11,760 nucleotides of DNA from a virus (Duplodnaviria > Heunggongvirae > Uroviricota > Caudoviricetes), in the IMG/VR virus record IMGVR_UViG_2534681774_000039; one strand, given 5' to 3'. Numbering within the stretch: position 1 is the first letter of the stretch; the number at the start of each line of letters is the position of its first letter. The notes beneath the pieces are model-generated. The model did not search any database and had not been told where the DNA came from. It saw only the letters and a list, made by a program, of their open reading frames with translations. Shown here one piece after another: positions 1-8,629 of the stretch. Position numbers and translations under genes: made by a program.

Positions 1-276
1 GTGGCTTCTGTTTCTATCAGCTGTCCCTCCTGTTCAGCTACTGACGGGGTGGTGCGTAACGGCAAAAGCATCGCCGGACATCAGCGCTATCTCTGCTCTC
101 ACTGCCGTAAAACATGGCAACTGCAGTTCACTTACACCGCTTCTCAACCCGGTACGCACCAGAAAATCATTGATATGGCCATGAATGGCGTTGGATGCCG
201 GGCAACTGCCCGCATTATGGGCGTTGGCCTCAACACGATTTTACGTCACTTAAAAAACTCAGGCCGCAGTCGGTAA
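1..276 (+). CDS. insA: IS1 InsA (transposition inhibitor / N-terminal part of the InsAB' transposase), GTG start
   Basis: 91-aa translation [23 protein letters not shown]...NSGRSR with CPSC...CSHC zinc-finger motif matches IS1 InsA; stop TAA 274-276. Confidence 0.9.
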
Positions 277-698
277 CCTCGCGCATACAGCCGGGCAGTG
301 ACGTCATCGTCTGCGCGGAAATGGACGAACAGTGGGGCTATGTCGGGGCTAAATCGCGCCAGCGCTGGCTGTTTTACGCGTATGACAGGCTCCGGAAGAC
401 GGTTGTTGCGCACGTATTCGGTGAACGCACTATGGCGACGCTGGGGCGTCTTATGAGCCTGCTGTCACCCTTTGACGTGGTGATATGGATGACGGATGGC
501 TGGCCGCTGTATGAATCCCGCCTGAAGGGAAAGCTGCACGTAATCAGCAAGCGATATACGCAGCGAATTGAGCGGCATAACCTGAATCTGAGGCAGCACC
601 TGGCACGGCTGGGACGGAAGTCGCTGTCGTTCTCAAAATCGGTGGAGCTGCATGACAAAGTCATCGGGCATTATCTGAACATAAAACACTATCAATAA
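195..698 (+). CDS. insB: IS1 InsB frame, expressed as the InsAB' fusion by -1 programmed frameshift at the A6C motif (252-258)
   Basis: 167-aa frame ...[28 protein letters not shown]...[10 protein letters not shown]... matches IS1 InsB; overlaps insA in the -1 frame; stop TAA 696-698. Confidence 0.85.
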
Positions 699-963
699 GT
701 TGGAGTCATTACCGCCTCCTGAATAGTGATGCTGAATAACATAACCCCATGATATATCGATAAAATAATCTCTACATTTGAAAATGCACGGTAATTCTGA
801 AATGCAAAAAATCAACCAAACCAGCGCAATGCCTGAAAAAACTGACGTTCACTGGAGTGGTCGGTTTAGCGTTGCACCAATGCTCGATAGGATGTACCGT
901 TTTTGAAAAACAACTAGTTATACACTTTGTGGGAGCCTATTGGGAACCTGAAGTTTTGCTCTT

Positions 964-1036
964 TCTATTCATATCTATTCATAAAGCACCATTTGCTGCC
1001 TTATCTGATTGACCAAAAACAACCGCGGTTATAGAC
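964..1036 (+). promoter_or_regulatory. Candidate promoter for the 1091-2081 operon (-35 TTGACC 1009-1014, -10-like TATAGA about 1030-1035) preceded by a perfect tandem 10-bp direct repeat TCTATTCATA x2 (964-983)
   Basis: Hexamer match and spacing read directly; the tandem repeat sits just upstream of the -35. No experimental support; the -10 is weak. Confidence 0.3.
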
Positions 1037-1090
1037 TTTGCTCCAAATAGCTAAGGCTATTGCTTAGTAAGTAAAACAGTTGAGGTTGCC

Positions 1091-1630
1091 ATGAATCCGT
1101 TTAACGCCATTACTTTTGCTGCATTGTGCGGGCCTCTGGCTTGTCCTGCTGCTATGGCGCAGGAGTTCATCATCCAGCCAGCCCCTGTGATTGCTAAACC
1201 TTTTGAGTACTCTCCTTCTGTTGAGGAATTCTCACGCAAAATGGAAGAGGGTAAGGAGATCTTGCAAAAGTTAACAATTGCAGCAGATGACTACTATATC
1301 TGTTTGATTGATCTTAATAGCCAAGATGCTCGCGAGTTTGTTTCCAAAAACGGGACAGATACGACAGAGGCATGCGAAATGTTCCTGCGTGCTTTTGAAG
1401 AAGAAGTGAAGCGTACAATTGAATCGCCTCTGCCTGAATTTATCAGGTCAGAACTGAAGGTTTACTGGCGTCATATTGCTAAAGCTCGCTCATCTGTCAC
1501 TCGCCTTAACAATTACATAAAGAGCATATTTAAAGAAACTGTTACTTTTAGCGGGCGCGCGGATCTTGCTGGAATTGCAGCACTAGCTAGTCACACATCA
1601 AATAAGCTAAAATCGATGCAATTTCACTAA
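1091..1630 (+). CDS. Hypothetical 179-aa protein with hydrophobic signal-peptide-like N-terminus (MNPFNAITFAALCGPLACPAAMA/QE); first gene of a two-gene module with the YafO-like gene
   Basis: Good RBS (GAGG, 5-nt spacer) before ATG 1091; 16-nt gap to the downstream gene; no family recognised from sequence. Confidence 0.6.
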   Translation: MNPFNAITFAALCGPLACPAAMAQEFIIQPAPVIAKPFEYSPSVEEFSRKMEEGKEILQKLTIAADDYYICLIDLNSQDAREFVSKNGTDTTEACEMFLRAFEEEVKRTIESPLPEFIRSELKVYWRHIAKARSSVTRLNNYIKSIFKETVTFSGRADLAGIAALASHTSNKLKSMQFH

Positions 1631-1646
1631 CCGATAGCGGACGACC

Positions 1647-2081
1647 ATGCATCTAGAAGTCTCTATTAATCCAGAAACTAGAGCTGAATTTTTTGATGAA
1701 GTTTTTCTCAAATTCCCGGAGCTAGAGTCTTCTATCATTGATGATTTCAAGAGATACAAAGCAACCGGTGAGCTTCCGCATTATTTCGGTAGGGACGTTG
1801 CGTATACTCAGCCTTATGGTGCTTTTCGGGCTGGGTTGATGCATATCCATCTTTGTCTACCGCCAAACAAGTTTCCCGAGAAACTTCCACAACCGGATAG
1901 GGTCTGCAAGAAAGGTGATCCTGATAATGATGCTTGTCTTGTGTATGTCCAAGGTGAGCTTTATGAGAATAAATATTCACTCATTGCTATTATGTATCCC
2001 GATGCACATGAAAAAGCAAGAAAACATGATGTGATGAGCTATCTGGCGCGAATTGCCCAGAATTATAAAGATGAAAACTAA
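1647..2081 (+). CDS. YafO-family toxin-like protein (ribosome-dependent mRNA interferase family)
   Basis: Translation carries blocks I recall from E. coli YafO: ...YKATGELPHYFGRDVAY..., ...MHIHL..., ...ACLVYVQGE...SLIAIMYPDAHEKARKHD...; 144 aa; stop TAA 2079-2081 followed by a terminator. Confidence 0.7.
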   Translation: MHLEVSINPETRAEFFDEVFLKFPELESSIIDDFKRYKATGELPHYFGRDVAYTQPYGAFRAGLMHIHLCLPPNKFPEKLPQPDRVCKKGDPDNDACLVYVQGELYENKYSLIAIMYPDAHEKARKHDVMSYLARIAQNYKDEN

Positions 2082-2101
2082 CCCGCCGAAGCGGGTTTTT
2101 T
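2081..2101 (+). terminator. Rho-independent terminator (stem ACCCGC / GCGGGT, CGAA loop, T6 tract), shared by the convergent YafO-like and excisionase-like genes
   Basis: Perfect 6-bp GC-rich stem, tetraloop and T-run directly after the stop codon at 2079-2081; partly bidirectional (A-run on the other side). Confidence 0.75.
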
Positions 2102-2107
2102 GTGAGA

Positions 2108-2380
2108 TTAGTTATTTATTTTCCTATTTGTTCTTACCCTCTCCCATTCAATTCTGCCTTCTTCACGCCGTTTATCTATATATTCAGCAAGATCCTGAAT
2201 GTTGATGCAGCGCTTTGCTTTCTGTGATGTACCAACACGATAAGTCGGGATCGGCAACTGGCATGCATTTGCTTTCGCTTCTGCTGTGTTAGGGCTCATA
2301 CCGAAATACTTTTGGCATACAGCTGACAGCTCAATGTTTGGGGTATTGAATTCAGCCATCAGTAAAAACAAGGTGTTCAT
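2108..2380 (-). CDS. Excisionase-like / PrtN-family small DNA-binding protein; likely start at the internal ATG 2380 (MNTLFLLMAEF...) rather than GTG 2407
   Basis: MNTLFLLMAEF...SAVCQKYFGMSPNTAEAKANACQLPIPTYRVGTSQKAKRCINIQDLAEYIDKRREE resembles the PrtN/excisionase-like proteins of lambdoid prophages as I recall them; GGAG RBS 6 nt before ATG 2380; last gene of the minus-strand operon. Confidence 0.6.
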   Translation of the reverse strand: MNTLFLLMAEFNTPNIELSAVCQKYFGMSPNTAEAKANACQLPIPTYRVGTSQKAKRCINIQDLAEYIDKRREEGRIEWERVRTNRKINN

Positions 2381-2416
2381 AATTTTCTCCATCAAAACCG
2401 GCTGCACCCGGGAAAA

Positions 2417-2989
2417 TCATAATTCTGTGCTGGTAGCAGGAATTAATTTCTGCCAGATAGCGGAAACATATTTTGCCTGATGACGGGCATCAGCCAGGGC
2501 GTTGTGCCGGTCGCCATCGAAAGGCATGTCCATTTTGGGGTCGAATCCGATGGAACGCCCAAGCGTAACGATCGTGCGTACATCGTGGTCATTCCAGTAC
2601 GCCCACGGGCAGATTTGTCCTGCTCGCTCGTAAGCTCCACGTAAAATTACGTTGTCGAAGGTGGCCCCGTTACCCCAGACTTTTAAATATTTCGTATTGT
2701 CTGCGTGCCGGTTAATGAAATGGTTTAGTTCTGAGAGAGCATCGCTGATCGACAAAGTATCATCAATACAGATTGCAGCTCGTGCTTCAGGGCTTTGTTT
2801 CAACCACCACAGGATGGTATCGCCGTCAGGTGTAGCTCCTTGCTCCATAGCACTTTCCAGGCTAACAACCGTATAGAATTCTTGTCCGATGTCTCCGATT
2901 TCTGGAGTGAAGAACACCGCGCCAATGGAAACGATCGGTGCATCCTTATTTTTCCCCATCGTCTCAAGGTCGATCATTAAGTTGTTCAT
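2417..2989 (-). CDS. DnaQ-like DEDDh 3'-5' exonuclease (phage exonuclease)
   Basis: Exo motifs readable in the translation: IDLETMG (Exo I D-x-E), WGNGATFDNVIL (Exo II), HNALADARHQAKY (Exo III H-x4-D); GGAGG RBS; ATG overlaps the upstream stop (TGATG). Confidence 0.75.
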   Translation of the reverse strand: MNNLMIDLETMGKNKDAPIVSIGAVFFTPEIGDIGQEFYTVVSLESAMEQGATPDGDTILWWLKQSPEARAAICIDDTLSISDALSELNHFINRHADNTKYLKVWGNGATFDNVILRGAYERAGQICPWAYWNDHDVRTIVTLGRSIGFDPKMDMPFDGDRHNALADARHQAKYVSAIWQKLIPATSTEL

Positions 2990-3555
2990 CACTTCACCTC
3001 CAGCGGCGGTTCCGGTAGCGGCATCCAGTGAGTTGCTTGCTCAATACCATTACCCGGCTTAATCGTTGCATCTCCGCGCCGAAAGGTGCTTCCGGTATAG
3101 CGTGCGGAGCATATTAGCGGTTCAACCTGAGAGCTATCGAAATTCACCGAAATAAGCACGTTCTGGCCCTTTTCAGGCATTCGATCACTACAGCTTATCC
3201 AACTATCCGGAGTTCCCGGAGAGTTGCCATTTACATCGAAGTTTGGCTCTGCGTCCTGAACTAGGAGGATGTAACCATTTTTGGCTGTATCAAGTTCTAA
3301 CGCCTCGGTGACGGTACCGAAATAGCGATTACCTAAATCAACATCACAAGTGCTTACATCAATGGAAACTTCCATGCCTTCGATTAATTCTGGCAAGTTG
3401 TAAGTTTGGCTTACAGGCTCTGCTTCCAGCGATACCAGTGCAATTCGTGCCAGTTCTTCCGCTTCTTCTGCTGGCAGTACAACGTTGCTGCCAGGTCCGT
3501 ATGTTTCGCGCCACTGCTGGATTGTCAGCAGTCGCCCTTTGGTAATAGTGATCAT
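2989..3555 (-). CDS. Phage protein with DUF551-like C-terminal region
   Basis: 188-aa ORF translationally coupled on both sides (ATGA overlaps); C-terminal ...WISCSDRMPEKGQNVLISV... resembles the DUF551 signature of lambdoid early-region proteins (from memory). Confidence 0.55.
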   Translation of the reverse strand: MITITKGRLLTIQQWRETYGPGSNVVLPAEEAEELARIALVSLEAEPVSQTYNLPELIEGMEVSIDVSTCDVDLGNRYFGTVTEALELDTAKNGYILLVQDAEPNFDVNGNSPGTPDSWISCSDRMPEKGQNVLISVNFDSSQVEPLICSARYTGSTFRRGDATIKPGNGIEQATHWMPLPEPPLEVK

Positions 3556-4067
3556 GCCGCGTTTCCTTCTTTCTTATTAACAATCACACCGTCATATATT
3601 TCATTAAGGTGCCCTCTCAACTCCATGCGCCTTAATGCAGATAACATGTAATCGCATTCAACCTGCTTATTCCCAGTAAATGGCTTATCGTCAGGATTAC
3701 CCCAACAGCAATTACCCCTGGGCCATCCATGTACTTTCCGTACTCTTCCGTTAACAACGTGAAGTAATCCCCAGCCGGGAGGTAAATCCTCAACTGAAAT
3801 AATTTCCGGCTCACTAATAAAGAATCGCCAGTCGCCCATGCCAAGTGAGGGATTTTTACGGAAACGCTTTTTTCTATCTGCCAACAAGTCAGCACGAGAA
3901 CACTTCGCCTCTATCAGGCATGATGCTGAATTTCTGAATCCCATAGCATCTGGCTGTTCTCCGGTACTGGTTACAGCAACAAAGCGGTCATGAAAGCAAA
4001 CCTTGAACCCGTTGCGCTTAAGGAACTTGTACGCAATCTGACAGAGTTCGTGGTGTGTTAACGCCAT
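3552..4067 (-). CDS. PD-(D/E)XK nuclease-fold-like hypothetical protein (171 aa from the internal ATG with AAGGAG RBS)
   Basis: Motif arrangement E(LCQ)...GEQPD...(13 aa)...LIEAKCS fits E...PD...(D/E)xK; strong RBS AAAGGAGAG 6 nt before ATG 4067; the ORF-track start at 4100 is probably read-through into the upstream gene. Confidence 0.5.
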   Translation of the reverse strand: MALTHHELCQIAYKFLKRNGFKVCFHDRFVAVTSTGEQPDAMGFRNSASCLIEAKCSRADLLADRKKRFRKNPSLGMGDWRFFISEPEIISVEDLPPGWGLLHVVNGRVRKVHGWPRGNCCWGNPDDKPFTGNKQVECDYMLSALRRMELRGHLNEIYDGVIVNKKEGNAA

Positions 4068-4068
4068 A

Positions 4069-4617
4069 TCACTCTCCTTTGATGCGAATGCCTGTTGCAA
4101 TGCTGTTTATGATGCTGTCAGTGCATGGGGTAGAAAGCTGGGCATCTCCAGCAATTTTCATGACCTCAACATCTGCATATCGAATACCGAGGTGTATCAG
4201 ACCGGCTATGCCTGACTTAAGCCGAGCATTTTCCATAAATAGAACTTTTGCCCGCTGTTTTTCTGCTTCAAGCTCAACGCGCAGCTTCCCTACCGTTAGC
4301 GCAATATCCTCGTTCTCCTGATCGCGGCTTTTGATGTATTGCAGGTTTCTTTCCTGTTCATCCAGCAGTGCCAGCACGGTAGCCGGGTTAGCCTCTGCTA
4401 TGAATTCAGCGTTTGCATAAGCCTGAGCATCTGATTCAATCAGGCAGTTAACATGACATTCCGCAATCACGCCACCGGGTTCTCCTTTCCATTTTTGGCA
4501 AACAAAAACTCCTGTTAAATTGCCGTGCTGGTTAACAGATGTATGCCCTACGATGTAGCTTCCTTTAGTTGCTTTCTCTGCCTTTTCACGCAGTGCCTGA
4601 TAGTTAATTTGGGTCAC
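4069..4617 (-). CDS. Ead/Ea22-like phage protein
   Basis: N-terminus MTQINYQALREKAEKATKG... and a coiled-coil-rich middle resemble Ead/Ea22-like proteins of lambdoid prophages; ATGA overlap with the upstream gene. Confidence 0.55.
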   Translation of the reverse strand: MTQINYQALREKAEKATKGSYIVGHTSVNQHGNLTGVFVCQKWKGEPGGVIAECHVNCLIESDAQAYANAEFIAEANPATVLALLDEQERNLQYIKSRDQENEDIALTVGKLRVELEAEKQRAKVLFMENARLKSGIAGLIHLGIRYADVEVMKIAGDAQLSTPCTDSIINSIATGIRIKGE

Positions 4618-4838
4618 TCTTCATCCTCCAAGTCGGCAACGGCGTCCATCACATCAGAACCGCGAATAACCTCAAAAGCACGGCAGGCCATTTGAAATAC
4701 CAGTTGCTCTTGCGGATGCGGTGATTCCCAATATTTGAATCCAGGGCGATGCGCGTACCCCATCATTGAATAAAAATCACCAGCAAGCTTAATCGCGGCA
4801 TCAACAAGCTCTCTGTTAGTCATTCTTTTTCCGCTCAC
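4614..4838 (-). CDS. Small hypothetical phage protein (about 74 aa, probable GTG start at 4838 with GGAGG RBS)
   Basis: ORF coupled to its neighbours (GTGA and ATGA overlaps); acidic C-terminus (DLEDEE); no family recognised. Confidence 0.45.
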   Translation of the reverse strand: MSGKRMTNRELVDAAIKLAGDFYSMMGYAHRPGFKYWESPHPQEQLVFQMACRAFEVIRGSDVMDAVADLEDEE

Positions 4839-5446
4839 TGGTTGCCTCCTTTGCGAATCTGTTCCGCCCATTCTTCTAGGGATTTCTCCGCATATTCACC
4901 GGACAGGCCATCAATCGGGTGTGGTTCATTAGCCAACTCTTCTTTCGCTGACAGAATCATGCGTGTAACGTCGAAAACTTCACGTAAAGACTTATTGATA
5001 AATCCGTGATTGAAAGCAGCAGCAAGACGGCTTGCGGTATAGTTAATCCCCTCGTTGCGTGCTTCCGCACGAATTTCAGCCAGGAAAGCATCGGTGGCTG
5101 GAGTTTCGCTGTGGTGTAGGGCATCGTTGATAATCATTGCAGCAACACCAGCCTGCCCTGCATCCGTGACCGACACATGCTCAAGAGTTACGGCCATTGC
5201 GTGTTTCAGCCCCGCATTCTCCGCCGCCAGCGCCGAAAACTTCTCGTGTGCCAACTTAACAGCTGCATCAGCCTGCTTAATTGACTCAATCGCTTTCTGT
5301 TGGTCTTCGGACAGAGCCAAAATCTTGGCCTCCGCTTCAGCAAATTTACGCACCAGATATTCAGCATTTGTTTCATTCACTTTCAGATCTCGTGGTACAC
5401 ATTTCCCGCGAAGAAACCCTTCCATTTCGAAAACATTCATGCGCAT
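4835..5446 (-). CDS. Hypothetical phage protein, alanine-rich / coiled-coil-like (203 aa)
   Basis: Long ORF in operon context; start overlaps the HD gene stop (ATGCGCATGA); no family recognised. Confidence 0.55.
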   Translation of the reverse strand: MRMNVFEMEGFLRGKCVPRDLKVNETNAEYLVRKFAEAEAKILALSEDQQKAIESIKQADAAVKLAHEKFSALAAENAGLKHAMAVTLEHVSVTDAGQAGVAAMIINDALHHSETPATDAFLAEIRAEARNEGINYTASRLAAAFNHGFINKSLREVFDVTRMILSAKEELANEPHPIDGLSGEYAEKSLEEWAEQIRKGGNQ

Positions 5447-5973
5447 GTGCGTAACTCCGATAACTCGTTAAAGCGCTCCATAAACATCCCGTAGGCATGG
5501 CTCGGAGCCAGTGGAATAACTTTGAACATTTCTGTTGCCGGGATACCTTCCAGTACTGGCCAGAAAGAGCCATCATCAAGCCCGAGATCGCGGCGTTCGG
5601 TTGCCAGCATGATGAGATCGGCATATTTCACAGGCGTGCTCATAACCGGGGGTAACCCGTATTTCTCACGGATTACGGCGTCTATTTTTTCTTCCATCCG
5701 TTTATAGTCAGGAAGAAGGCGTTTCAGTGGAGCGGGAATATCCTGGCAATACGCTTCTGTTGCATCATGCATTAACGCTTCAAAAGCAAATTCCTGCGGC
5801 ACCAGCTGGCTGCAAAGCACCGCATGTTGGGCGACACTGTAGAAGTGAGAAAGATGACCGGCAAAGCGGCAGATATTTGAAAGGGAAACCGCGATATCGT
5901 TAATCACGATGTCGTCTTTATTTATCTTGTCATAATAAAAATGCTTCCCGGAAAAAGTTTTAATAAATGACAT
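5437..5973 (-). CDS. HD-domain phosphohydrolase, YfbR-like (5'-deoxynucleotidase-like)
   Basis: ...YSVAQHAVLCSQL... (metal-binding His) and ...EALMHDATEAYCQDIPAPLK... (HD motif) align block-for-block with E. coli YfbR as I recall it; GGAGA RBS before ATG 5973; the upstream in-frame extension to 6042 is discounted. Confidence 0.75.
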   Translation of the reverse strand: MSFIKTFSGKHFYYDKINKDDIVINDIAVSLSNICRFAGHLSHFYSVAQHAVLCSQLVPQEFAFEALMHDATEAYCQDIPAPLKRLLPDYKRMEEKIDAVIREKYGLPPVMSTPVKYADLIMLATERRDLGLDDGSFWPVLEGIPATEMFKVIPLAPSHAYGMFMERFNELSELRTCA

Positions 5974-6015
5974 TTTGTTCTCCACGTTATATGCGCTGCA
6001 CCGCTCTGAATTTTG

Positions 6016-6065
6016 ATTGCAGCAATCCAGCCCATTTGACATGGGATGATTGCTGCAATTTTTTT
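6016..6065 (+). terminator. Intergenic hairpin (12-bp perfect stem ATTGCAGCAATC / GATTGCTGCAAT, inner CCCA/TGGG tier) followed on the + strand by a T7 run; terminator-like in the + orientation, between rdgC and the HD gene
   Basis: Base pairing checked position by position (6016-6027 with 6048-6059); T-run 6059-6065 overlaps the rdgC stop codon; orientation is opposite to the surrounding operon. Confidence 0.4.
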
Positions 6066-6981
6066 AAGTTGTTGGATTTTGGCTTTTATCTTCTTTGTAA
6101 GAAAGAAGGTCACACATCAAATTAACTACCTTGCTGAATTGGAAAAGGTCAGCGCCAGTCTGATGACGCCACTGGAATGCTTTATCATCTTCATCATTAA
6201 ATGTCTGAGATTGAGTATTGATGCGCGAAAAATGGAAATTTTCGGTAAGAATGAAGGTCACACCGCAACCGGATAACTCCATTTTATCAGCAGTGAAACT
6301 ACTACTAAGACTATCGGCCAGTTCGCTTTGAATTGACTCATGCTCAGCTGAGTAGCGAATAATTTCCTTTTGATCTGCGTAGCGTGATAGCTGAATATAA
6401 TTTCCGACAGTGAATCCTTCAAATGCATTGGCTGCACCATTGATGTAGTTATTCAGGCGTGTAGTCAGTCCATTCTTGATATCACTGATGTTGATTGTTT
6501 CTGTTTTCACTGAACCGACAACCTTAATCAGCATTGCGCATACCATACCAGCTATTATTTTATTGGTTGTGTTGATTACCAATAATTTCTCATCAGTGCT
6601 GTACAATGCAAGAATCAGCGTAGACTTAACAAATGCCTGTTTGCATAGATCTACTCGTACGTTATCAATAATGGCCAGTCGTTCGGCACGCTTTAATTTA
6701 TTCCCGGACATATTTTCGATTGTTTGGATTCGAGAATTAGCTTCTTTCATGACGACATGTCGGGGAATTATTTTCTGATCATGACGGATTACCATTGCGT
6801 ACCCACCAGATATCGGAGTTACCAGTTCACCAGTGACAGGATTCTCTACAAAAGAGGACCGTGAAAATTCTGTTTCCCCGATTTCAGAATAAGGGAGTTC
6901 GAGAAGATGACCTTCAATAGCCTGTATACTAGGTAATGTTGCTCGGTACACAATTGCGTTACGAAATTTTGGTAATTTCAT
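6064..6981 (-). CDS. rdgC: Recombination-associated protein RdgC-like (305 aa from the internal ATG 6981)
   Basis: MKLPKFRNAIVYR... parallels the RdgC N-terminus (MLWFKNLMVYR...), and central blocks (...MVIRHDQKIIP..., ...KLKRAERLAIIDNV...) parallel RdgC as recalled; GAGGAAAA RBS before ATG; the 67-codon upstream extension in the ORF track is read-through into the leader. Confidence 0.8.
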   Translation of the reverse strand: MKLPKFRNAIVYRATLPSIQAIEGHLLELPYSEIGETEFSRSSFVENPVTGELVTPISGGYAMVIRHDQKIIPRHVVMKEANSRIQTIENMSGNKLKRAERLAIIDNVRVDLCKQAFVKSTLILALYSTDEKLLVINTTNKIIAGMVCAMLIKVVGSVKTETINISDIKNGLTTRLNNYINGAANAFEGFTVGNYIQLSRYADQKEIIRYSAEHESIQSELADSLSSSFTADKMELSGCGVTFILTENFHFSRINTQSQTFNDEDDKAFQWRHQTGADLFQFSKVVNLMCDLLSYKEDKSQNPTT

Positions 6982-7015
6982 TCTATTTTCCTCTGCACAA
7001 GATATTAGTTTCTCC

Positions 7016-7104
7016 ACAAAACAGAGAAGAACACCTGCGGTGGCAGCCGCCCGGGTGGATTGGGTTATGAGCCCGTCGTCCGGTGATGCTCTTCTCTGTT
7101 TTGT
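7016..7104 (-). promoter_or_regulatory. Large RNA hairpin in the pL leader: 15-bp perfect stem (7016-7030 with 7090-7104) enclosing a ~55-nt GC-rich loop, about 35 nt upstream of the rdgC RBS
   Basis: ACAAAACAGAGAAGA pairs with TCTTCTCTGTTTTGT, verified by position; the loop contains further short palindromes (CCCGGG, GCGG/CCGC). Confidence 0.4.
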
Positions 7105-7150
7105 AAAAAGAGCGGTACCAGCCGGAAGCAAGTGTACAAACTGGTACCGC
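7103..7150 (-). terminator. Candidate rho-independent terminator within the leftward leader (10-bp perfect stem GCGGTACCAG / CTGGTACCGC, 19-nt loop, then UCUUUUUAC on the minus-strand transcript)
   Basis: Stem and U-tract read directly on the minus strand; the loop is larger than typical, hence moderate confidence. Lies between the pL-like promoter and rdgC, so it would need read-through or antitermination. Confidence 0.4.
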
Positions 7151-7561
7151 CAAAGCAGTGGCTGTTGTGGTGGGGTTGTCACTCAGGTGTATGGTCAACC
7201 TGACAATCCGGTGTCCTCAACGGGGAAAGAGTAACCCCGCCATACTTACCGCCGCGCCATTTCGCGGATTACCACAACGCTGAGAGCACTTAGCCAGTTA
7301 CGGCACCACACTTTGTCGCGGTTCCATAAATGCCCTCATCGTTGCACCCTGGTCTCTTCCCAGGCGTCAAACCGAATCGCCACGCTGGTTAGGCGTCTTA
7401 TCAGCATCCTCATTGACTTGCACATTCCGGCTACCTGGTTTGTTTGCCCGAGCAAGGAGTGGATTGTCCCCTTTAACGTCCCCAGACCGCTAACGACGCA
7501 TGTGCCATACGCCGTGTTACAACCAAATTTTGTTTAATCTTGCCTGTGGCATGTTTCTTTT

Positions 7562-7595
7562 AGATACATTATGTATCTCAAGGGTACATTGTCAA
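7562..7595 (-). promoter_or_regulatory. pL-like leftward promoter (-35 TTGACA at 7595-7590, 16-nt spacer, -10 CATAAT at 7573-7568) overlapped by a 17-bp operator-like palindrome AGATACAT-T-ATGTATCT (7562-7578)
   Basis: Consensus -35, near-consensus -10 and spacing read on the minus strand; the perfect 8-bp inverted half-sites overlap the -10, as expected for a repressor-controlled OL. Confidence 0.45.
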
Positions 7596-7620
7596 GTATA
7601 AAAAACCTGCCGAAGCAGGT
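7596..7620 (-). terminator. Rho-independent terminator downstream of cI (stem ACCTGC / GCAGGT, UUCG loop on the minus strand, then U5 tract)
   Basis: 6-bp perfect stem plus tetraloop and T-run 13 nt after the cI stop codon (7633-7635). Confidence 0.7.
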
Positions 7621-7632
7621 TATAAATATTGA

Positions 7633-8307
7633 TTAGGCCTTTATTTGGTATCTTCTTGGTTTTCCTGAGAAAATTACTGTACCAATTATAGAGCAATTAC
7701 CGTTAATCTTAATGTAAGGCTCAGGCCAGTTTGGGTTTAATGCTTTGAGATAACGCTGTGTTCCATCTTCTATCAATCGCTTGAAGGTGGTTTCGCCTGT
7801 ATCGTGCATCAATGCAATAACGTCGTCACCGTGGCAGGCAGGGACTTCGGGATCAACAAAAATCATGTCTCCCGGGCGGTACTCATCAATCATTGAATCA
7901 CCAATCACCCGCAAGATATAAGTCATTTCGCCACAGGGTACAGGGCAGGGATAAGTTTCTGCTGTGCTCAAATCAACCTCAGAATAGCCAACTTCTTTCC
8001 ATGCTCCGGCCTGTACCCATGATATGACAGGGACTAACGTTATTTGTTTGTTAGTAATTGAAACATCAGGTTTTTTTGTGATGTTTGTTGTCTGGTGTTC
8101 TTGATCAAGCCATCCGACAGGCAGGTCGAAACATTTTTCGATGTGCCGTGCCATGCTGTCACCGATATTTTTAGTAGCACCATCTCCCATAAACCTGCTG
8201 GTCTGGGTTGGCTCGCGATCAATCATGGTGGCAAAGGAAGAATTCCCGCCAACACCATCTCTCAGTTTTCTGGCGTTAGACCGCCGGATGTCATGGACTG
8301 TTTTCAT
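7633..8307 (-). CDS. cI: cI-like prophage repressor, N-terminal DNA-binding domain plus C-terminal LexA-like S24 autopeptidase domain
   Basis: C-terminal domain shows a candidate Ala-Gly cleavage site (WVQAGAWKE), catalytic Ser motif GDSM, and a Lys in ...TTFKRLIEDG... resembling the LexA ...FTVKRLKKQG... block; position and orientation (divergent from cro) fit an immunity repressor. Confidence 0.8.
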   Translation of the reverse strand: MKTVHDIRRSNARKLRDGVGGNSSFATMIDREPTQTSRFMGDGATKNIGDSMARHIEKCFDLPVGWLDQEHQTTNITKKPDVSITNKQITLVPVISWVQAGAWKEVGYSEVDLSTAETYPCPVPCGEMTYILRVIGDSMIDEYRPGDMIFVDPEVPACHGDDVIALMHDTGETTFKRLIEDGTQRYLKALNPNWPEPYIKINGNCSIIGTVIFSGKPRRYQIKA

Positions 8308-8323
8308 AACGAAATTAAAACCT

Positions 8324-8375
8324 TTGTACCGATAGGGTACAAGTATCTTGAAGGTTCATCTCAATCATGTAATAT
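8324..8375 (+). promoter_or_regulatory. OR/pR region: operator-like palindrome TTGTACC-N5-GGTACAA (8324-8342) and pR-like promoter (-35 TTGAAG 8348-8353, 16-nt spacer, -10 TAATAT 8370-8375) driving cro
   Basis: Inverted repeat and hexamers read directly in the 90-bp cI-cro divergent spacer; GGTACA/TGTACC half-sites recur at 8386-8391 and in the OL region (7583-7588). Confidence 0.45.
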
Positions 8376-8397
8376 GTATATCGGAGGTACATATTGT

Positions 8398-8598
8398 ATG
8401 AAAGCGTATTGGGACTCTTTAACCAAAGAACAGCAGGGCGAGTTGGCCGGAAAAGTTGGCTCAACACCAGGCTACTTACGGCTAGTTTTCAATGGTTATA
8501 AAAAAGCCAGTTTTGTGCTGGCTAAAAAACTTGAGCAATGCACGTCAGGTGCAATTACGAAATCTGACTTAAGACCGGATATCTATCCGAAAGATTAA
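8398..8598 (+). CDS. cro: Cro-like small HTH regulator (YdaS-like)
   Basis: 66-aa protein MKAYWDSLTKEQQGELAGKVGSTPGYLRLVFNGYKK...SDLRPDIYPKD; GGAGG RBS 8 nt before ATG 8398; the ...LRPDI... C-terminal block recalls Rac YdaS-type Cro proteins; first gene of the rightward operon. The 167-aa ORF-track version (8095..) is an upstream read-through that overlaps cI. Confidence 0.65.
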   Translation: MKAYWDSLTKEQQGELAGKVGSTPGYLRLVFNGYKKASFVLAKKLEQCTSGAITKSDLRPDIYPKD

Positions 8599-8629
8599 CA
8601 GAACACCTTCAATTTTTAACCACAGAACG

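Follow-up and report, generated by a model that had tools for sequence, protein, structure and literature searches.

The window analysed here is an 11,760-nt stretch of DNA from a virus of the Caudoviricetes (IMG/VR record IMGVR_UViG_2534681774_000039). Near one of its ends lies a compact cassette of two co-oriented genes, referred to below as A and T, the second of which encodes a member of the YafO toxin family. In all 19 independent loci of our census, an A-family gene is found no more than 20 nt upstream of a T-family gene, at varied accessory positions, and this linkage is new; the T toxin is of a known kind, and its obligate partner family, with a signal-like head, is undescribed. A preliminary description made from the letters of this DNA had pointed out the two-gene + strand cassette, its YafO-like second gene, and an upstream partner of about twice the usual antitoxin size, with a hydrophobic N-terminus, an AxA-like site, and no RelB/DinJ-like region. 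Each of these features was borne out by the searches and comparisons reported here. The coding features of the cassette are as follows.

1091-1630, + strand: gene A, encoding a 179-amino-acid partner protein of PHROG 8416 without a Pfam match, the putative antitoxin or regulator of T.
1091-1159, + strand: signal-peptide-like element of A (codons 1-23), MNPFNAITFAALCGPLACPAAMA/QE, with an AxA site at residues 21-23.
1647-2081, + strand: gene T, encoding a 144-amino-acid YafO-family (RelE/ParE, BECR-fold) toxin, 16 nt 3' of A.

The T protein matches the Pfam YafO_toxin profile (PF13957) over positions 1-100 of 101, with 76.5 bits (cut-off 25) and an E-value of 1.9e-21. Against the NCBIfam equivalog for Escherichia coli K-12 YafO (NF007377) it scores 75.8 bits, below the cut-off of 153, so it is a member of the YafO family and not a YafO ortholog. 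Over 117 residues, T and K-12 YafO share 36% identity, together with the motifs FG.D, HIH, R85, LVY.QG, and P..H; among the positions that do not vary across 28 sequences, K-12 YafO included, are H66, I67, H68, Q82, R85, Y100, and H121. The fold is RelE/HigB-like, which places T in the RelE/ParE (BECR) superfamily, with an extra folded N-terminal extension of 28 residues and a 6-residue insertion relative to K-12 YafO. Nothing in its sequence suggests that this putative toxin is inactivated, and a few truncated T copies are found in databases.

The loci containing the pair were reached in three ways: from A by a genome scan, from T, and from distant A-family representatives. The census counts 19 independent loci rather than all genomes, and in 19 of 19 the A-family gene lies directly upstream of the T-family gene, the spacing ranging from -10 to +20 nt; neither gene was met alone among them. 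No third gene is conserved with the pair in these loci, and the neighbors differ in every one. In many of them the ribosome-binding site of T (TAAGG or TGAGG) incorporates the stop codon of A, a hint of translational coupling. In loci L005, L014, L021, L024, L026, and L027, the codon for the C-terminal His, the stop codon, and a following GG make up CAT-TAA-GG or CAT-TGA-GG, 5-9 nt before the T start; the window has a weaker version of this motif (CAC-TAA-CC...GCGGA). T is the more conserved partner in 99% of 171 pairwise comparisons, and the divergences of A and T correlate (r 0.67). In toxin-antitoxin pairs, the antitoxin is commonly the less conserved partner. The A-T pair behaves like a mobile two-component module with a faster-evolving upstream member, as in toxin-antitoxin pairs.

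The hosts of the pair include Escherichia, Phytobacter, Enterobacter, Pantoea, Yersinia, Providencia, Photorhabdus, Gilliamella, and Pseudomonas, as well as Klebsiella phages. Its sites are equally diverse: next to the xis/PrtN gene at the end of a prophage; in the gap separating tape-measure from minor-tail genes (gp17-gp18 of phage HK639; Pantoea); between tail tube and tape measure in a Yersinia prophage (L014, 828-1676); beside baseplate genes in Photorhabdus; directly downstream of a cI-type repressor and on the same strand in a metagenomic phage and in Pseudomonas phage YMC11/02/R656; and, in Candidatus Pantoea multigeneris, at one non-phage chromosomal location. The Yersinia pair follows immediately on a ParD-ParE pair and an extra ParD-like gene, so that toxin-antitoxin cargo is stacked in one tail-gene gap. 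Among 5,426 complete E. coli genomes, 48 (about 1%) contain the 1.1-kb cassette at 99.6% identity or more, in 49 records, and each full-length match has both open reading frames (ORFs) annotated as intact. The isolated temperate phages PhiR40_1 and PhiR55_1 carry a copy with 100% identity. E. coli M8 and two close relatives differ by 1 nt in the length of the region; in M8, the missing base belongs to the T-run of the terminator.

Gene A belongs to PHROG 8416, to which no function is assigned in that database. The window protein has no match in Pfam, NCBIfam, or PADLOC, including the antitoxin families of the first two, and no similarity to YafN (BLASTP E-value 1.7). A Pfam search of 32 A-family members gave no hit and detected no DNA-binding domain, and profile searches of the PDB with the A family returned nothing credible. 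The family is small: an exhaustive profile search of 1.84 billion representative proteins recovered only 23 relatives, mostly of 170-205 residues, with a few fragments and one of 249, in all of which the matched region is a single A domain. A structural model of A (predicted local distance difference test, pLDDT, 79) consists of a detached N-terminal helix (residues 6-24), a disordered linker (25-43), and a five-helix bundle (44-174), for which fold searches found generic helical bundles only. The motifs conserved across the whole family (LR..E, AKAR...LN, S.ID..GL..LA..T, and a C-terminal FH) all fall in the bundle. In one record, that of PhiR40_1 (PV340560.1), A is labeled "YafM antitoxin"; as A has no similarity to K-12 YafM/RayT, we regard the name as an annotation artefact, and everywhere else A is annotated as a hypothetical protein. 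An internal start that would give a signal-less isoform of A was considered and rejected, as neither M22 nor M51 has a ribosome-binding site and M51 is not conserved.

Hydrophobicity in the window A protein is highest over residues 4-23, which end in a c-region of the form P19...A21-M22-A23/Q24-E25, with a helix breaker, small residues at positions -3 and -1, and an acidic start after the site, which resembles the AQPAMA of the PelB leader. The n-region begins MNPFN and contains no Lys or Arg, while many A homologs have one to five such residues there; where present, these basic residues precede the core, and an N-in/C-out orientation is therefore favored. On an approximate membrane-insertion scale, the best 10-mer of window A scores +1.0 kcal/mol; nine benchmark signal peptides span -0.3 to -1.9 and seven cytoplasmic N-termini +1.4 to +6.8. 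The best 19-mer of window A (+5.7) is inside the signal-peptide range. The 10-mer score falls in the benchmark range for 14 of 37 A-family members, is marginal for 13, and is weak for 10, the HK639 clade being among the weak (+2.6). A membrane anchor was rejected, because the insertion energy of the best 19-mer is positive in 37 of 37 members; with no favorable 19-residue window in any of them, the element is signal-like and not an anchor. A lipoprotein was likewise rejected: inspected by eye, window A has no lipobox-fitting residues before C13 or C18. Many partners do have a Cys where the hydrophobic segment ends or immediately beyond (ALHC/S, VFSC/E, SIGC/D, STSC/A, ASAC/T), and in the E. 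coli clade C13 is inside the segment, but the Cys residues of A-family N-termini fit no canonical lipobox.

The signal-like architecture extends across the family. Homologs down to 22-30% identity retain an N-terminal hydrophobic segment and a small-x-small site, with equivalent cleavage-type sites such as SFSA/G, SQA/DE, ASA/QM, and AKA/AE. Several have textbook n/h/c signal peptides, namely those of Photorhabdus (MNLSLRSCLAVVLFGGVLSVPSFSA/G), Providencia (MKAIKMILAALATGVATVPSIDCLA/S), Pseudomonas (MARTKVPFSKVAMLSLALSVSTSCAQLAAA/T), a Klebsiella phage (MKFNIQYLHAAVVMVLSSLQPQAKA/A), and Gilliamella; their N-terminal sequences are unrelated to that of the E. coli protein and share its architecture. 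One branch, comprising Klebsiella phage pJN2-26 (L026, 874-1491) and Escherichia phage CMS-2020a (L027, 883-1491), has a polar, non-hydrophobic N-terminus and is clearly homologous in the C-terminal half. It occurs in phage records of roughly 110 kb, two of them circular, and retains the C-terminal motifs (IRGLEG..., ...FSFH) and the YafO partner. A related phage (L028) carries a textbook-signal partner at a similar position, just after a glutaredoxin-like ORF. Judged from these sequences, the hydrophobic N-terminal element is ancestral and widespread in the A family. The label "signal-peptide-like" given to the partner in the preliminary description thus holds for the architecture kept by the homologs, less so for the window protein, whose signal is marginal, and not at all for the branch that has no such element. 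That A is obligatorily exported stays a conjecture, most of all in the case of the window protein.

The cassette also carries its own candidate expression signals.

1009-1037, + strand: candidate sigma-70 promoter, with the -35 box TTGACC (1009-1014), a 17-nt spacer, and the -10 box TAGACT (1032-1037).
1046-1061, no strand: palindrome AATAGC-TAAG-GCTATT, between the -10 box and the ribosome-binding site, a possible operator.
1082-1085, + strand: Shine-Dalgarno sequence GAGG of gene A, 5 nt before the ATG.
2080-2103, both strands: intrinsic terminator, consisting of the hairpin AACCCGC-CGAA-GCGGGTT (2080-2097) and a T-run.

The promoter-like site scores 9 of 12 in a consensus scan, and such sites are no commoner in the region than in shuffled sequences. 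The TTG of its -35 box and an A/T-rich -10 box are kept at the same spacing upstream of the cassettes of Phytobacter, Enterobacter, Pantoea, Yersinia, and phage HK639. The candidate promoter of the preliminary description is therefore unremarkable by score but conserved across genera, and it stays a candidate on the strength of its consensus match and this conservation. The window, Phytobacter, Pantoea, and Gilliamella each have a palindrome of the type ATAGC-N4-GCTAT roughly 45 nt ahead of the start codon of A. In Pantoea both arms have changed together (GATAAC-ACAA-GTTATC), and the Gilliamella version is ATAGC-GTGA-GCTAT. No DNA-binding domain is evident in either A or T. As an RNA element of the 5' untranslated region, the hairpin at 1046-1061 was rejected, its stability being like that of shuffled sequence (z 0.5). 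The GAGGT of the A ribosome-binding site is invariant across six aligned homologous cassettes.

The strong terminator proposed earlier is confirmed: its 7-bp GC-rich stem overlaps the stop codon of T, and scans match it on both strands, so that it also reads as a terminator for the convergent PrtN-like gene. Two further forms of control were considered and rejected. An RNA antitoxin (type I or III) found no matching Rfam family, the best score being that of isrK (19.6 bits against 50), and for LexA control there is no LexA-box match within 700-2450 and no dinB in the window. A perfect tandem 10-bp repeat (TCTATTCATA, twice, at 964-983) is located within the prophage, some 95 bp from its end, and precedes the -35 box by 26 bp. 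Possible functions are an arm site for integrase/excisionase or an upstream element of the promoter. No other tandem repeat occurs in or beside the cassette.

Past a host part, the window consists of the early and immunity region of a lambdoid prophage. Two features mark the surroundings of the cassette.

784-888: 5' fragment of host dusA, the same as the partial "tRNA-dihydrouridine synthase" coding sequence annotated there in E. coli M8.
2108-2407, - strand: PrtN/excisionase-like gene, flanking the cassette and convergent with T.

Window positions 1-713 are a partial copy of the insertion sequence IS1 (InsA/InsB frames), whose terminal inverted repeat ends at 713. The ORF at 784-906 begins as the 5' end of host dusA (MHGNSEMQKINQTSAMPEKTDVHWSGRFSVAPMLD) and continues into a short new C-terminus supplied by the phage (RMYRF, then a stop). 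Phage DNA, corresponding to position 1 of the PhiR40_1 record, starts near 870, and E. coli M8 and E138 have this junction too. Because the 5' end of dusA runs into phage DNA, the prophage is integrated in dusA; its integrase gene must lie at the far end, beyond the window. As phage DNA starts near 870, the cassette, about 220 bp within the left end, is the first item inside the prophage. The excisionase-like neighbor had been recognized before, along with a position between this gene and IS1; the first stands, whereas the IS1 copy is inserted in host DNA just 5' of the dusA start, outside the prophage.

The orientation of the cassette is opposite to that of the adjacent early operon, as first described, with both the PrtN/excisionase-like gene and the next flanking gene, an Rv2179c-like exonuclease, on the - strand. 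With its promoter-like site and terminator, its opposite orientation, and its variable positions in other phages, it has the properties of a phage moron, and the suggestion of a moron-like placement holds in that it is a self-contained accessory unit at a prophage end. Other genes of the early region encode DUF551, Ea22, HD-hydrolase, RdgC-like, S24 cI-type repressor, CII-like, and Rha/Ash proteins. The 372-residue ORF at 6064-7182 (- strand) matches Pfam RdgC only from residue 73 onward, and the GTG start listed for it probably makes the gene too long; its counterpart in related prophages, which is not identical, is annotated YfdQ and has about 275 residues. Compared with PhiR40_1 and E138 over window positions 3000-8614, the early region is a mosaic, in which the only matching blocks are 870-3000, 5338-6012, 7005-7534, and 8614 onward (91-99.5% identity). 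The cassette is nearly identical everywhere despite this ordinary exchange of lambdoid modules.

Adjacent co-oriented genes, a small toxin, a partner immediately upstream, and joint inheritance make up the general layout of a type II toxin-antitoxin (TA) system. We consider the cassette, with a probability of about 0.5, to be a non-canonical type II TA or abortive-infection (Abi) module, in which A neutralizes T and the N-terminus of A makes free A short-lived or ties it to Sec. A pair of this kind had been suggested in the preliminary description, and the strict A-T linkage fits that suggestion; the toxicity of T and its neutralization by A we infer.

Such a module would be mobile two-gene accessory cargo of temperate phages, probably expressed from its own promoter in the lysogen. 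T would act as a cytoplasmic YafO-family mRNA endonuclease, and free T would shut down translation. A occupies the antitoxin slot, being upstream, apparently well translated, closely followed by T, and faster evolving, and it most likely binds and inactivates T. Its N-terminal element may limit the lifetime of the free A pool or make that pool conditional, by way of Sec export and cleavage or by exposing A to chaperones and proteases. Loss of operon expression, whether by prophage loss or by host shut-off during superinfection, would then free T, as would a superinfecting phage that disturbs the Sec or membrane system, and the outcome could be Abi or exclusion, prophage addiction, or both. That the cassette neighbors immunity and att regions and comes with its own promoter-like site and terminator points to a module expressed in the lysogen and serving exclusion, Abi, or addiction.

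Several observations weigh against this interpretation. If A were fully exported, it could not hold a toxin in the cytoplasm, and no DNA-binding domain for autoregulation was detected in it. The signal of window A is marginal, with no basic n-region and a core weaker than those of 9 of 9 benchmark signal peptides. Export is not essential for the A family, because the element is weak in the HK639 clade and non-hydrophobic in the pJN2-26/CMS-2020a branch. PADLOC defence models gave no credible match for either T or A, and a literature search found no paper testing the A-T pair. We are more doubtful of the specific proposal that this would be the first TA family with an antitoxin that serves as Sec substrate or as client of host export chaperones, the host secretion pathway supplying lability or sensing in place of the proteolysis of classical TA systems and the dedicated SecB-like chaperone of toxin-antitoxin-chaperone systems. 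If it is correct, the module would report translation shut-off, membrane energization, or Sec jamming during phage attack and answer by mRNA cleavage.

The rival that survives best is an ordinary cytoplasmic type II TA system with a new antitoxin family, in which the N-terminus of A is a toxin-binding helix, a peripheral membrane tether, or a degron that mimics a signal peptide; we regard it as possible, if rather unlikely. Within the close clade of the window protein, the first 32 residues are the best-conserved part of A, and the conservation runs past the putative cleavage site (QEFIxQPAPV). The codons of this part show synonymous changes, so the constraint is at the protein level, and conservation of this strength is unusual for a mere export signal. 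Most close-clade members also have a single Cys after the putative site. The weak core and absent basic n-region of window A, and the retention of T by HK639-type and pJN2-26-type partners with little or no hydrophobic core, fit this explanation as well. However, the textbook signals of Photorhabdus, Providencia, Pseudomonas, Gilliamella, and the Klebsiella phage, being unrelated in sequence, fit a common physico-chemical role, namely export, better than a sequence-specific binding helix, and signal-peptidase sites typically combine a small-x-small motif with a Gly or Pro helix breaker 4-6 residues ahead of it.

Alternatively, A may be an exported periplasmic protein with a job of its own, such as superinfection exclusion or envelope modification, and not the neutralizer of T. 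T would then be restrained otherwise, by low coupled translation or by self-inhibition through its 28-residue N-terminal extension, or would be non-toxic at native levels. The signal-like N-terminus across most of the A family agrees with this, and so do the sites of the cassette next to att/xis, downstream of cI, and in tail-gene gaps, where phages often keep exclusion and lysogenic-conversion genes. The literature on Pseudomonas aeruginosa prophages, moreover, lists no antitoxin for these YafO toxin genes (PMC10449497). Yet the adjacency in 19 of 19 loci, with gaps of at most 20 nt and overlapping stop and ribosome-binding signals, argues for stoichiometric co-expression of interacting partners; among those loci neither gene was met without the other, and one branch keeps the pairing without any signal. 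We therefore hold an independent exported function to be unlikely. A further alternative is that T may use the YafO fold for another purpose.

A sensor-effector arrangement working in the opposite direction seems very unlikely. Here, export would clear A, and a phage that collapses the membrane potential or jams Sec would leave unexported pre-A to activate T or lift its inhibition, leading to Abi. Defence systems that monitor host machinery are known, and such an arrangement would account for a cytoplasmic RNase always partnered with a Sec-type substrate. It is purely inferential, though, and the non-hydrophobic branch does not fit it; RelE-type toxins, moreover, are not known to need a protein activator. 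A precedent for monitoring of this sort is the toxin-antitoxin-chaperone (TAC) system, which monitors a SecB-like chaperone (10.1101/2024.02.24.581848). Finally, a decaying or neutral remnant, in which an orphan toxin gene happens to stand beside an unrelated hypothetical gene, could explain the few truncated T copies but is highly improbable, given intact ORFs in all 49 full-length E. coli records and a pair whose conservation spans Pseudomonas to Orbaceae, with synonymous changes and under purifying selection.

The YafO gene has been treated as an orphan toxin in databases and prophage surveys, yet it always travels with one specific, unstudied partner family. Found in some 1% of complete E. 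coli genomes as well as in phages PhiR40_1, PhiR55_1, and HK639, the cassette offers a defined and easily cloned two-gene system for research on phage defence and toxin-antitoxin biology. Should A prove to be exported or Sec-dependent, it would represent a new control of a cytoplasmic toxin and possibly a new way of sensing phage attack. A Photorhabdus TA survey and a Pseudomonas tailocin paper contain nothing on the A partner.

Among known systems, K-12 yafN-yafO is a type II TA pair in the dinB operon, and its mRNA interferase, YafO, belongs to the RelE/ParE BECR superfamily. It shares with the cassette the toxin family PF13957 and the arrangement of partner first, toxin second, and a short gap, an order described for the YafO family (PMC11980606). 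Unlike YafN, to which it is unrelated, A is twice as long and all-helical, with a signal-like N-terminus and without a recognized DNA-binding domain; the cassette, moreover, is phage-borne and has neither the dinB context nor a nearby LexA box.

In TAC systems such as HigBAC, a SecB-like chaperone recognizes a hydrophobic/aromatic tail of the antitoxin, and a phage protein is the trigger (10.1101/2024.02.24.581848). Like TAC, the cassette combines a RelE-superfamily toxin with a partner bearing an extra hydrophobic segment, which in TAC governs antitoxin stability and gives phage-triggered abortive defence. A SecB-like gene is absent, however, from the gene listings of all 19 loci, and the segment of A is N-terminal with signal-peptide architecture, in contrast to the C-terminal chaperone-addiction element of TAC. 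Any dependence of A on the SecB of the host is hypothetical.

ToxM, a BECR-fold toxin fused to a transmembrane domain, has been proposed as the first membrane-associated type II TA system (Gerdes 2025, PMC11980606), and it likewise links a RelE/ParE-superfamily toxin to the cell envelope. In ToxM, the toxin itself bears the transmembrane helix and a periplasmic domain, whereas here T is soluble and A bears a short, non-anchor segment. Neither the TAC nor the ToxM paper describes a signal-bearing YafO partner. As with lambda rexAB and other exclusion or Abi genes expressed in lysogens, two lineages place the A-T pair directly downstream of a cI-type repressor; in others it occupies a prophage end or a tail-gene gap, with a promoter and terminator of its own. 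There is no relation to rexAB in sequence or fold, and the mechanism of the A-T pair would be mRNA cleavage rather than membrane depolarization.

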